A DNA stretch of 64,000 nt, taken from the NCBI RefSeq assembly GCF_056746865.1, contig NZ_CM163382.1; one strand, 5' to 3'. Below are positions 54,781 to 57,674 of the stretch, one piece after another (within the stretch, counting starts at the first letter, position 1; every line of letters begins with the position of its first letter). Position numbers and translations under genes: made by a program. The notes below the pieces were generated by a model that saw only the letters and a program-made list of their open reading frames with translations, was not told where the DNA came from and searched no databases.

Positions 54781-55302
54781 ATGTGGACAGTCAGCCTCGC
54801 TGAGGCGTTTATTCATGTATTCCAGGTCGCAGGCAAAATCTTCCTCGACATGATGACCGGGCTTATCCCGATGCTCATCTGCCTGCTGCTGGCCATCAAC
54901 TTCCTGATGAAGCTGGTTGGTACCGTGCGGATGGAGAAAGTTGCCGCCCTGCTCGGCCGCTCGCGCATTCTCACCTACGGCGTGCTGCCGGTGCTCGGCT
55001 GGTTCTTTATGAGCAGCCCCGGCGCGCTCACTTTAGGCAAACTCCTGCCCGAAAAGAGCAAGCCCGGCTATGAGGATGCGCTCGGCACCCCCGCCCATCC
55101 CCTCACCAGCCTGTTTCCCCACGTAGTGCCATCAGAGCTGTTTGTCTGGCTCGGCGTGGCTGCCGGGGTTAAGGCGCTCGGCCTGCCCGTCACCTCGCTG
55201 GCGCTGCGCTATATCGCCGCCGCCATGCTGATTGGTTTAATCCGCGGGATTATCACCGAGTACCTGTTCCTGCGGCTCAGCAAGCGGGGGAATGCGCCAT
55301 GA
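54781..55302 (+). CDS. glucitol/sorbitol-family PTS EIIC (SrlA-like)
   Basis: 173-aa hydrophobic ORF resembling E. coli SrlA (GxxPxLxxLL, YxxxLGxPxH-like segments); GGAGG RBS. Confidence 0.75.
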   Translation: MWTVSLAEAFIHVFQVAGKIFLDMMTGLIPMLICLLLAINFLMKLVGTVRMEKVAALLGRSRILTYGVLPVLGWFFMSSPGALTLGKLLPEKSKPGYEDALGTPAHPLTSLFPHVVPSELFVWLGVAAGVKALGLPVTSLALRYIAAAMLIGLIRGIITEYLFLRLSKRGNAP

Positions 55303-55673
55303 TGATTTACTGAGCACGTATCGTCGCCATCGGGCTGTTTGTCGCCGATGGTCTCACCGACAAAATGCTTATCACCTTCGACAGCAACGGGCCGAAGGAC
55401 TGTCTCGATTACTCGCTATCGCTGGAGCCGTCGTTCCGGGAAGAGAGCCTGATGATACTCCCCGGCGACCGCCTGCTGCTGGCGGGCCACGATTTTCTGG
55501 TGACTGCCGTCGGCAAAGGGGCACAGCAGGCGCTGTTTGAACTCGGCCACCTGACGCTGGTGTTCAATGGTGACCTGAATCCCTGCCATGTCGGCGCGGT
55601 TCATCTCTCCGGCCCGGTGCCGAACCTGCGCGACCTCCACGGCAATCTGGTGATTGAGGAGGGGCGGCCATGA
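55299..55673 (+). pseudogene. glucitol/sorbitol-family PTS EIIA (SrlB-like) with in-frame TGA at codon 5; alternatively a shortened CDS 55365..55673
   Basis: atg atg att tac TGA gca cgt atc gtc gcc atc ggg aligns residue-for-residue with SrlB MTVIYQTTITRIG; downstream 102-aa ORF matches the rest of SrlB (GHLTLVFNG, VHLSGPVP). Confidence 0.6.
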
Positions 55674-56650
55674 ACACGGTGCTCATTCCCCCCGGTCCCG
55701 GCGGCTATGGTAAGGGGCTTTGGCTACCCACAGGGAGCGGCAAAAAGGTACTGTCGCTGACCGGGCGCGAGATTCATCCGGTGGCGATAGAAATCGGCGC
55801 ACTTACCGAATCGGAAGTGGTGAATGGCTTTGCCGATATCCCGCCGGATAACGACATCCTGTGCGTGGTGATTAACTGTGCCGGGTCCCTGCGCTGCGGC
55901 CTGTATCCGCAGAAGGGTATCCCGACCATCAACGTGCTGCCTACCTGGCGGGCCGGACCGCTGGCGCACTTTATTAGCGAAGAGAACTACGTCTCCGGTG
56001 TGACGATAGAGCAACTGGTTCTGGTGGATACCGCCGAAGCGCCGGACTGTCAGCCTGAGTCAGTTCCAGCTCCGGAGCCAGTCATTACCACCGCTCCTCC
56101 ACCTCCGCGCGGTGCGGAGAAACTGGTGCGCATGGTCGAGCAGACCGGCACCGCCGTCGGCCACGTTATCGCCCTGCTGTTCGCCGCCAGCCGTGAGGCG
56201 GTGGACGTGTCGCTGCGCAACGTTATCCCGTTTATGGCCTTTGTCTCGCTGCTGATTGCCCTGGTGCAGGAGACCGCGCTCGGCAGCCTGATTGCCCACG
56301 CCCTGACGCCGCTGGCGAACTCACTGTGGGGACTGGTGCTGCTGTCGCTCATCCGCGGCATTCCGTTTCTCTCCCCGGTGCTAGGGCCGGGTGCGGCTAT
56401 CTCGCAGGTGATTGGCGTGATGATTGGCACACAGATTGGCGCAGGGGCGATATCTCCGGCCTTCGCCCTGCCCGCCCTGTTTGCGATCAATGTGCAGGTC
56501 GGCTGCGACTTCGTGCCTGTTGGCCTTTCGATGCAGGAGGCAAAGCCGGAGACCATCGCAAAAGGTGTACCCGCCTTTCTGCTGTCGAGACAACTGACCG
56601 GACCGCTTGCGGTAATAGTCGGCTGGCTGTTTTCCCTGGGCTTATTCTGA
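55670..56650 (+). CDS. glucitol/sorbitol-family PTS EIIBC (SrlE-like)
   Basis: 326-aa ORF resembling E. coli SrlE (CGLYPQKGIPTINV, FMAFVSLLIAL, ALPALFAINVQVGCDFVPVGLS). Confidence 0.8.
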   Translation: MNTVLIPPGPGGYGKGLWLPTGSGKKVLSLTGREIHPVAIEIGALTESEVVNGFADIPPDNDILCVVINCAGSLRCGLYPQKGIPTINVLPTWRAGPLAHFISEENYVSGVTIEQLVLVDTAEAPDCQPESVPAPEPVITTAPPPPRGAEKLVRMVEQTGTAVGHVIALLFAASREAVDVSLRNVIPFMAFVSLLIALVQETALGSLIAHALTPLANSLWGLVLLSLIRGIPFLSPVLGPGAAISQVIGVMIGTQIGAGAISPAFALPALFAINVQVGCDFVPVGLSMQEAKPETIAKGVPAFLLSRQLTGPLAVIVGWLFSLGLF

Positions 56651-56660
56651 GGACATAACG

Positions 56661-57674
56661 ATGAACAAAATCAGAGCCGCCGTGGTCGGCGCAGGTATCT
56701 ACGGCAAACACCATATGAATGCGTACCTCCATAACCCGGACACCGTGCTGGTCGCCATCTGCGACACCGATACAGAACGCTGCGACGACCTCGCCATGAC
56801 CTGTGGCGTGATGGGTTATACCCGGCTGGATGTCCTGTTACAGGAGGAAGCCATCGACGTGGTCTCGGTGGCGACACCTGACCCGTACCACACTGAATCC
56901 ATCCTCACCGCCCTGCGCCACGGCAAACATGTGCTGGCGGAGAAACCGCTCGCCACCTCAGTACGCGAGTGCGAGCTTATCGTGGAGATGGCGCAACAGC
57001 GCGGCCTGCTGGTCGGCGTCGATTTCCACAAACGCTGGGACCCGGCGGTGATGCGCATCAAAGCCGAACTGGAGAAACCGGAGACCGGGCGGATCCTGCG
57101 CGGCCATATCAGTATGGACGACGTGATTACCGTGCCGACGGACTGGCTGGACTGGGCGGGCGCAAGCTCCCCTGTGTGGTTTCTCGGCTCACACTGCTTT
57201 GACCTGGTGCGCCACCTTTCCGGTCAGGAAGTGGTGTCGGTGTATGCCGCCGGGCAGAAACGGCTGATGACCGAATGCGGCCTCGACACCTTCGACAGCG
57301 TGCAGAGCCTTCTGACGATGGCCGACGGCAGTTCGTGGGTGGTGGAAAACTCGTGGGTGCTGCCGGAGGGCTTCCCGAAGGACAACGACGGGCGCATTGA
57401 TATTCTCTGTGAGGCAACGTATATCCGCAGCACCTCGCAGCATCGCGGGCTGGAAATCACCACGCCAGGCATGACGCTCACGCCCAACAGCTACTTCATC
57501 AACTACCGCAACGGTGTCGCCAGCGGTTTCGGTATCGATCCGATAAACGACTTTGTTCGCGCGGTCAGGAACCGTTCGCCGTACCCGGTGACGGCAGAGG
57601 ACGGGCTGGCGGTCAGCCGGATTTGCGAGGCGGTGCACCGCAGTCTGGAGAGCGGGAAACCTGAAGATGTTTAA
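56661..57674 (+). CDS. Gfo/Idh/MocA-family NAD(P)-dependent oxidoreductase
   Basis: 337-aa ORF with N-terminal Rossmann motif AVVGAGIYG and EKPLA motif. Confidence 0.8.
   Translation: MNKIRAAVVGAGIYGKHHMNAYLHNPDTVLVAICDTDTERCDDLAMTCGVMGYTRLDVLLQEEAIDVVSVATPDPYHTESILTALRHGKHVLAEKPLATSVRECELIVEMAQQRGLLVGVDFHKRWDPAVMRIKAELEKPETGRILRGHISMDDVITVPTDWLDWAGASSPVWFLGSHCFDLVRHLSGQEVVSVYAAGQKRLMTECGLDTFDSVQSLLTMADGSSWVVENSWVLPEGFPKDNDGRIDILCEATYIRSTSQHRGLEITTPGMTLTPNSYFINYRNGVASGFGIDPINDFVRAVRNRSPYPVTAEDGLAVSRICEAVHRSLESGKPEDV

Follow-up and report, generated by a model that had tools for sequence, protein, structure and literature searches.

Is a Gut-family phosphotransferase system (PTS) that is paired with an unexpected dehydrogenase and carried on accessory DNA a second route for sorbitol, a transporter for some other carbohydrate, or a relic? 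This question is raised by a four-gene cluster at positions 54781-57674 (+ strand) of a 64,000-nucleotide stretch of Escherichia coli DNA (contig NZ_CM163382.1 of assembly GCF_056746865.1), hereafter the window. Our analysis suggests, with a probability of about 0.6, that the cluster is a self-contained mobile catabolic module of its own lineage, composed of a Gut PTS and a dehydrogenase of the Gfo/Idh/MocA family (GFO), and that the E. coli copy is most probably inactive. The features of the module are as follows.

54781-55302, + strand: PTS IIC2 subunit (SrlA/GutA-like), 173 amino acids (aa); PF03608 EII-GUT, E=1.6e-59
55299-55673, + strand: PTS IIA (SrlB-like), 124 codons, interrupted by a nonsense codon; PF03829 PTSIIA_gutA, E=6.9e-19
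55311-55313, + strand: in-frame TGA at IIA codon 5, from codon comparison with relatives (TGC, Cys)
55670-56650, + strand: PTS IIB-IIC1 (SrlE/GutE-like), 326 aa; PF03612 EIIBC-GUT_N, E=2.2e-55, and PF07663 EIIBC-GUT_C, E=1.5e-45
56661-57674, + strand: GFO NAD(P)-dependent dehydrogenase, 337 aa; PF01408, PF22725 and PF02894, E=7e-31

The open reading frames (ORFs) and their Pfam domains bear out the order EIIC-EIIA-EIIBC-GFO given by an initial annotation of the window, and the domain assignments across the module (Pfam, NCBIfam) have E-values from 1e-19 to 1e-120. In RefSeq the genes are named srlA, IIA, srlE and Gfo/Idh/MocA family protein. The IIC ATG at 54781 is preceded by a good Shine-Dalgarno sequence (GGAGGA). 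ATGA overlaps are present at both the IIC/IIA and the IIA/IIBC junctions, and the 10-nt spacer between IIBC and GFO carries a GAGGA Shine-Dalgarno sequence. A separate IIC2, a IIB-IIC1 fusion and a soluble Gut-type IIA together make up the architecture of the PTS Gut family (TC 4.A.4); the ORF of one of these three components, IIA, is not intact. In IIA, the phosphorylatable His84 is invariant in an alignment of 17 homologues. The IIBC protein matches the solved E. coli GutE (9X2M) with E=2.3e-76. Its Cys70 (VINCAGSLRCG) is aligned to GutE Cys71 (VIDCGGTLRCG), the phosphorylatable catalytic cysteine of the IIB domain (PMC13106763).

The same genome has a complete canonical operon, srlA-srlE-srlB-srlD-gutM-srlR-gutQ (L012, 23068-28015), ~65 kb from the island module. 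The two systems share the split IIC, the IIB-IIC1 fusion, the soluble IIA, the catalytic Cys and His, and a dehydrogenase gene directly downstream. However, the srl operon has the order IIC-IIBC-IIA and the short-chain dehydrogenase/reductase (SDR) SrlD, whereas the module has the order IIC-IIA-IIBC and a GFO dehydrogenase, lies on a mobile island and has an interrupted IIA in this genome. Since the comparison operon comes from the same genome, the difference in order and dehydrogenase that was originally noted is real. No SrlD-like (SDR) ORF was found in the module block, and no gutM, srlR or gutQ between 53.9 and 59.2 kb. The identity to the resident SrlA, SrlB and SrlE is 40%, 40% and 43%, respectively. 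A phylogeny of the three PTS components against SrlA, SrlE and SrlB had been proposed as a check; in rough neighbour-joining trees of all three proteins, the canonical proteins fall outside the GFO-linked Gut group. Low identity, the conserved order of the module and these trees rule out a diverged or rearranged copy of the resident srl operon.

Calling the gene order non-canonical is correct with respect to the E. coli srl operon but not as an oddity, as a whole clade of Enterobacterales normally has this layout. The same four-gene order is found in Klebsiella, C. sedlakii, Salmonella (chromosome and IncHI2A plasmid), Buttiauxella, Raoultella and Citrobacter. The Klebsiella module proteins are 93-97% identical to the E. 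coli ones; for IIC, the identity is 95% to Klebsiella, 67% to Citrobacter and 40% to E. coli SrlA. The Citrobacter locus (51-67% identity) is core-chromosomal, is located between gyrA and rcsC, and has its own RpiR-type regulator. Between E. coli and Klebsiella or C. sedlakii, the ratio of nonsynonymous to synonymous substitution rates (dN/dS) is 0.05-0.15 in all four genes, indicating strong purifying selection. We take IIC-IIA-IIBC-GFO to be the ancestral layout of this clade, which did not arise by rearranging srlAEBD. Some members of the clade have a sister form of the transporter, ~57% identical and without GFO; it was seen on an Enterobacter cancerogenus plasmid (L095) and in a Raoultella ssrA island (L007/L008), where a major facilitator superfamily (MFS) transporter and a heparinase II/III-like protein follow instead. 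L095 keeps the IIC-IIA-IIBC trio, and IIA is missing or truncated in L007/L008.

The module appears to be STM2750-2753 of S. Typhimurium, in which STM2753 is presumably the GFO gene. The S. Typhimurium island STM2740-STM2771 has the same module in the same island type, with the same hxlA-hxlB-cupin glucose-6-phosphate isomerase-ptsG-like-SgrR neighbours. The nucleotide identity is 89.3% over the whole module for plasmid pS2122_1 and 88.0% over the GFO gene for a second Salmonella plasmid. Unlike this E. coli, the Salmonella locus retains a gene for a Ner-like regulator of the HTH_35 helix-turn-helix (HTH) family and an intact 124-aa IIA. The island has been described (PMC3591323; PMC8281233), and 'sugar PTS STM2750-2752' is listed among its contents (PMC3591323). 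In the literature, the STM locus serves solely as a typing or deletion marker. The module is already annotated in public genomes, for example that of S. Typhimurium; it is real, it is conserved, and this E. coli has a degenerate copy.

The dehydrogenase belongs to a tight GFO subfamily, with at least 42% identity over the full length across phyla. It has the N-terminal Rossmann domain, the C-terminal alpha/beta domain, the EKP lysine and the conserved His of the GFO family. In the subfamily alignment, the EKP motif (E94-K95-P96) and H178 are invariant, and a D-[FY]-H-K-R-W-D motif is distinctive. The AlphaFold model has a mean confidence (pLDDT) of 88.8 and a GFO fold, with Foldseek matches at TM-scores of 0.8-0.87. 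The best NCBIfam equivalog is iolG (TIGR04380), to which the protein scores 144.6 bits, below the cut-off of 355. PDB sequence and Foldseek searches found only generic family members as the nearest characterised enzymes, and the paper on the 9X2M structure lists no binding residues; reading the substrate from structure was therefore given up. IolG, DgpA, glucose-fructose oxidoreductase and 1,5-anhydrofructose reductase share the fold, the Rossmann motif, the EKP lysine and the C-terminal His. The module enzyme differs from the characterised GFO dehydrogenases in its low identity to them (~20-25%), its own D-[FY]-H-K-R-W-D motif and its PTS linkage.

A scan for the subfamily, with one genome per species, returned 74 loci, and the 69 with a good match were used for the counts. 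A PTS lies beside the GFO gene in 53 of them, and is of the Gut type in 14, the Man type in 24, the Gat type in 12 and mixed types in 3. In the other 16 loci, the gene is either paired with a second GFO gene (10) or has no recognised PTS neighbour (6, several of which are on short contigs or at a contig end). At many PTS-linked loci, GFO is the sole enzyme recognised beside the PTS. It is found inside Gut operons without an SrlD-like gene in Clostridiales, Defluviitaleaceae, Brachyspira and Tepidanaerobacter. Firmicute Gut operons with GutM (L034, L039, L040, L063, L092) encode the same GFO subfamily (49-52% identical) and no SDR dehydrogenase. They are chromosomal, have RpiR and GutM regulators, and are arranged as GFO-IIC-IIBC-IIA-GutM or IIC-IIBC-GFO-IIA. 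The subfamily also occurs with Gat-type or Man-type PTSs (L013, L016, L033, L065, L067 and others among L018-L091), in gut Firmicutes, Coriobacteriaceae and Enterococcus. The Gat-type loci often contain an aldose-1-epimerase-like protein, a double-SIS isomerase, CutC, a TIM-like protein and YjbQ, and the Man-type loci contain RpiR or LevR/sigma-54 regulators.

The consistent linkage to PTSs, together with the subfamily motif, suggests that the substrate of the GFO enzyme is the phosphorylated transport product. Alternatively, the dehydrogenase gene may be neighbouring island cargo, functionally separate from the transporter, as some relatives have the IIC-IIA-IIBC trio followed by the MFS transporter and the heparinase II/III-like protein in place of GFO. 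We give this very little credence. In E. coli, GFO lies on the same strand as IIBC, only 10 nt away. Its adjacency to the transporter genes is kept from E. coli to the Citrobacter core chromosome and further to Firmicutes, Brachyspira and Tepidanaerobacter, and it is sometimes inserted between the IIBC and IIA genes. In addition, a PTS adjoins 53 of the 69 subfamily loci counted above.

The initial annotation recognised the IIA gene but overlooked a defect in it. The gene truly starts at 55299, with an ATG that overlaps the stop of IIC (ATGA). Translated from there, it reads MMIY*ARIVAIG..., with a TGA at codon 5. The 102-aa ORF from 55365 returned by the ORF finder lacks the first 22 residues of IIA, and its PF03829 match starts at profile position 21. 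In Klebsiella (L002 and L004) and C. sedlakii (L018), codon 5 is TGC (Cys), which indicates a single-base change in E. coli. The island IIA of this genome is 97% identical to the intact Klebsiella IIA, and intact 124-aa IIAs are found in Klebsiella, Salmonella, C. sedlakii and E. coli E04. An 81-nt query spanning the TGA is 100% identical in 131 E. coli genomes, so that 131 of the 133 complete genomes with the cluster share the stop. The two carriers without this allele are divergent; at least one of them, E04 (L094; 87.6% nucleotide identity), has an intact IIA of 124 aa. In the AlphaFold model of the intact IIA (pLDDT 95), residues 2-11 form the first beta-strand, which adjoins the invariant Gly12, and residues 15-20 form a helix. 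The next ATG after the stop is codon 23, with no obvious Shine-Dalgarno sequence ahead of it. Because the stop removes the conserved N-terminal strand, the E. coli copy is probably defective. As judged from the model, any E. coli IIA product probably lacks conserved core structure, with a likely loss of function.

Selenocysteine insertion or other programmed recoding at the TGA was considered, in view of the Cys that relatives encode at this codon, and rejected. Folding of the downstream RNA revealed no structure resembling a selenocysteine insertion sequence (SECIS), as it folds no better than shuffled sequences (z=-1.17). There is no Rfam match in 53800-58200, and the residue at this position is variable (C, N, L or Q). 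We regard the nonsense change as recent, and the module as previously under purifying selection, because dN/dS is low in all four genes, IIA included. Decay is also seen in related copies. In Klebsiella L004 (GCA_031920285.1, 10981-12445), GFO is interrupted by an in-frame stop (...LDVLL*EEAIDVV...) and IIA is intact, which we read as a separate inactivation of the same module in an E. coli-like island. In Raoultella L007, both IIA and GFO are lost. By these comparisons, the decay of the related island copies is independent.

We propose that the Gut-family PTS (IIC2, IIA, IIB-IIC1) would take up a hexitol-like carbohydrate, probably one other than glucitol or one in addition to it. The phosphoryl group would be relayed from HPr~P to IIA His84, to IIB Cys70, and then to the substrate. 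The co-transcribed GFO enzyme would use NAD(P)+ to oxidize the phosphorylated compound, and the resulting sugar phosphate would feed into central metabolism; the SDR SrlD carries out the equivalent oxidation for the canonical system. The TGC-to-TGA change at IIA codon 5 would break the phosphorelay in 131 of the 133 E. coli carriers.

Some observations weigh against this reading. Those on the state of the E. coli copy are that IIC, IIBC and GFO remain intact in this genome, and that low-level IIA might be produced by UGA read-through or from an ATC start, or the resident SrlB might substitute for the island IIA. The module could then be functional in E. coli despite the TGA, with IIA translated from the ATC at 55320, from the ATG at 55365 or by read-through, or with SrlB phosphorylating the island IIB. 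Consistent with this possibility, IIBC and GFO are each preceded by a Shine-Dalgarno sequence of their own, the RefSeq IIA model (117 aa, from the non-canonical ATC) bears no pseudogene flag, and the allele is unchanged in 131 genomes. However, the missing N-terminus is the conserved beta-strand next to Gly12, and ATC is a very weak start codon. The 131 identical copies represent one allele, spread by clonal descent or recent island transfer, and their identity is therefore not evidence of selection. Decay in the Klebsiella L004 and Raoultella L007 copies also argues against a functional module, as does the lack of a SECIS-like structure (z=-1.2) or an Rfam match at the TGA. Overall, a working E. 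coli module is quite improbable.

Other observations against our reading concern the substrate. IIC passes the NCBIfam SrlA equivalog (NF049923; 168.3 bits, cut-off 150), and IIBC passes the SrlE equivalog at the borderline (NF049924; 400.4 bits, cut-off 400). The GutM gene is kept in the GFO-linked Gut operons of Clostridiales and Defluviitaleaceae, which have no SDR dehydrogenase. Those GFO enzymes that are nearest among the characterised ones use cyclitols or glycosides without a phosphate group; because of this and their low identity, the reaction of the module enzyme is not predictable from them. The literature searched contained no functional study of the module, no paper linking Gfo/Idh/MocA to a Gut PTS, and none giving STM2749-2758 a function. 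Sorbitol catabolism requires exactly a PTS and a single dehydrogenase, and the dehydrogenase partners of Gut PTSs are diverse, comprising SDR, zinc-dependent alcohol dehydrogenase with a DeoC-like protein, DRL and GFO. A second sorbitol (glucitol) system is conceivable in this light, in which GFO replaces SrlD without being its orthologue and converts glucitol-6-phosphate to fructose-6-phosphate.

We consider a second sorbitol system unlikely. The genome already has a complete canonical srl operon, the identity to SrlAEB is only 40-43%, and IIA scores 61.1 bits against the SrlB equivalog, far below its cut-off of 165. The regulators also differ, being Ner-like or RpiR for the module and GutM and SrlR for the srl operon. 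Known GFO enzymes act mostly on cyclic sugars. Furthermore, PTSs of the Man and Gat families are served by this GFO subfamily too, and glucitol is not known as a substrate of either family. Weighing the coexistence with srl, the limited sequence identity, the distinct regulators and the GFO linkage to Man and Gat PTSs, we favour a substrate other than sorbitol by roughly two to one. The original suggestion of a paralogous transporter for a different polyol or sugar therefore stands as far as the paralogue is concerned, given the divergence from SrlAEB, the trees and the conserved layout; the different substrate is what we infer. A broader proposal, that GFO represents an unrecognised family of sugar- or polyol-phosphate dehydrogenases repeatedly recruited by PTSs of three superfamilies (Gut, Gat and Man) in gut bacteria from several phyla, with GFO as its Enterobacterales member, and that the module imports a non-sorbitol carbohydrate through a new one-enzyme pathway that depends on the PTS, is put forward tentatively, at somewhat less than even odds.

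Two features lie immediately upstream of the module.

54421-54780, strand not applicable: upstream non-coding region, in which the HTH_35 regulator gene of relatives is absent
53941-54420, - strand: divergent Cro/CI-type HTH gene, 159 aa; PF01381, E=2.8e-07

In Klebsiella L002, a Ner/Nlp(SfsB)-like HTH_35 gene is located directly 5' of IIC (8715-8999; PF13693, E=9.7e-36). Such a gene was called in L002, L018, L020, L056 and L097, which are Klebsiella, Salmonella, C. sedlakii and Buttiauxella islands, and is absent ahead of IIC in this E. coli, E. coli E04 and Klebsiella L004. Nucleotide homology to L004 and L094 begins at 54518, and that to L002 and L018 only at 54795. From its position, the Ner-like protein could be the regulator of the module. 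The idea that its loss drives decay is not supported, since E04 also lacks the gene, yet has four intact ORFs. The divergent HTH gene has counterparts (HTH_3) upstream in L002-L006, L094, L096 and L097 that are 34-38% identical to the 53941-54420 protein; a gene of this kind has the same position in most island variants and may or may not be part of the module. A simple and crude scan of 54421-54780 found no sigma-70-like site on the + strand. A leader or riboswitch 5' of IIC was rejected, as a hairpin over the Shine-Dalgarno sequence lacks significance (z=-1.25) and Rfam gave no match.

The location in accessory DNA, also claimed at the outset, is supported by the genomic context. The cluster is carried by only 133 of 5426 complete E. 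coli genomes, in every case on the chromosome; the carriers include a strain named as O15:H18 ST69. The island adjoins the transfer-messenger RNA (tmRNA) gene (ssrA) at 39961-40323, with an integrase gene, alpA and a DUF927 gene downstream. It lies between smpB/ssrA and ypjA and has an integrase, alpA and a primase-like gene, as in islands of the CP4-57 type; in K-12, the same site is occupied by the cryptic prophage CP4-57. The island is mosaic. Its conserved blocks, which are the integrase, alpA-DUF927, the PTS/GFO module (~54.5-57.7 kb) and an hxl block (59.2 kb onward), are separated by variable low-GC spots with anti-phage genes. Homology to relatives stops at ~57665-57719, around the GFO end.

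Several neighbours on the island are worth recording. The primase-like DUF927 gene (46083-48152, + strand) has 63% GC, far above its neighbours, underlining the mosaic origin. A low-GC (28-36%) defence-like block in an island hotspot (48825-53786, + strand) encodes a metallo-beta-lactamase-fold protein matching PADLOC LmuA/RTasMBL (E=2.9e-61), an unknown 407-aa protein, a 71-aa ORF and a Hachiman HamB helicase. HamB is split over 51262-52464 and 52503-53786 in different frames that jointly span the 845-position profile, probably by a frameshift. Directly 3' of the dehydrogenase gene, 57917-59170 (+ strand) encodes a DUF3883/NOV_C protein matching the anti-phage protein PD-T4-1 (E=1.7e-204), a single-gene system; this spot differs among island versions.

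A second accessory sugar block follows at 59242-64000 (-/+ strands), with hxlA (3-hexulose-6-phosphate synthase), hxlB (6-phospho-3-hexuloisomerase), a cupin-type glucose-6-phosphate isomerase and a ptsG-like IIBC. A divergent SgrR-like regulator, seen in L001, completes it. Islands of Klebsiella, C. sedlakii and Salmonella carry the block with 95% identity, and the combination is unusual for an enterobacterium. An obligate link between hxlA/hxlB and GFO, with 3-hexulose-6-phosphate as the product, was rejected, since the hxl block occurs only in island variants that are close relatives, whereas Klebsiella L002, Citrobacter, Raoultella, Buttiauxella and every Firmicute locus lack it.

No PTS family is known to have been explored less than Gut, for which glucitol is essentially the one substrate with proof. 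A conserved mobile Gut paralogue with another class of dehydrogenase would widen the known chemistry of the family. Genes of Salmonella Typhimurium, Klebsiella and E. coli lineages such as ST69 would also gain a function. The E. coli copy, which is probably broken, should not be counted as a working sorbitol transporter, contrary to its automatic annotation. As the GFO subfamily is found on PTSs of gut Firmicutes, Coriobacteriaceae and Brachyspira, the activity of one enzyme could annotate many loci.

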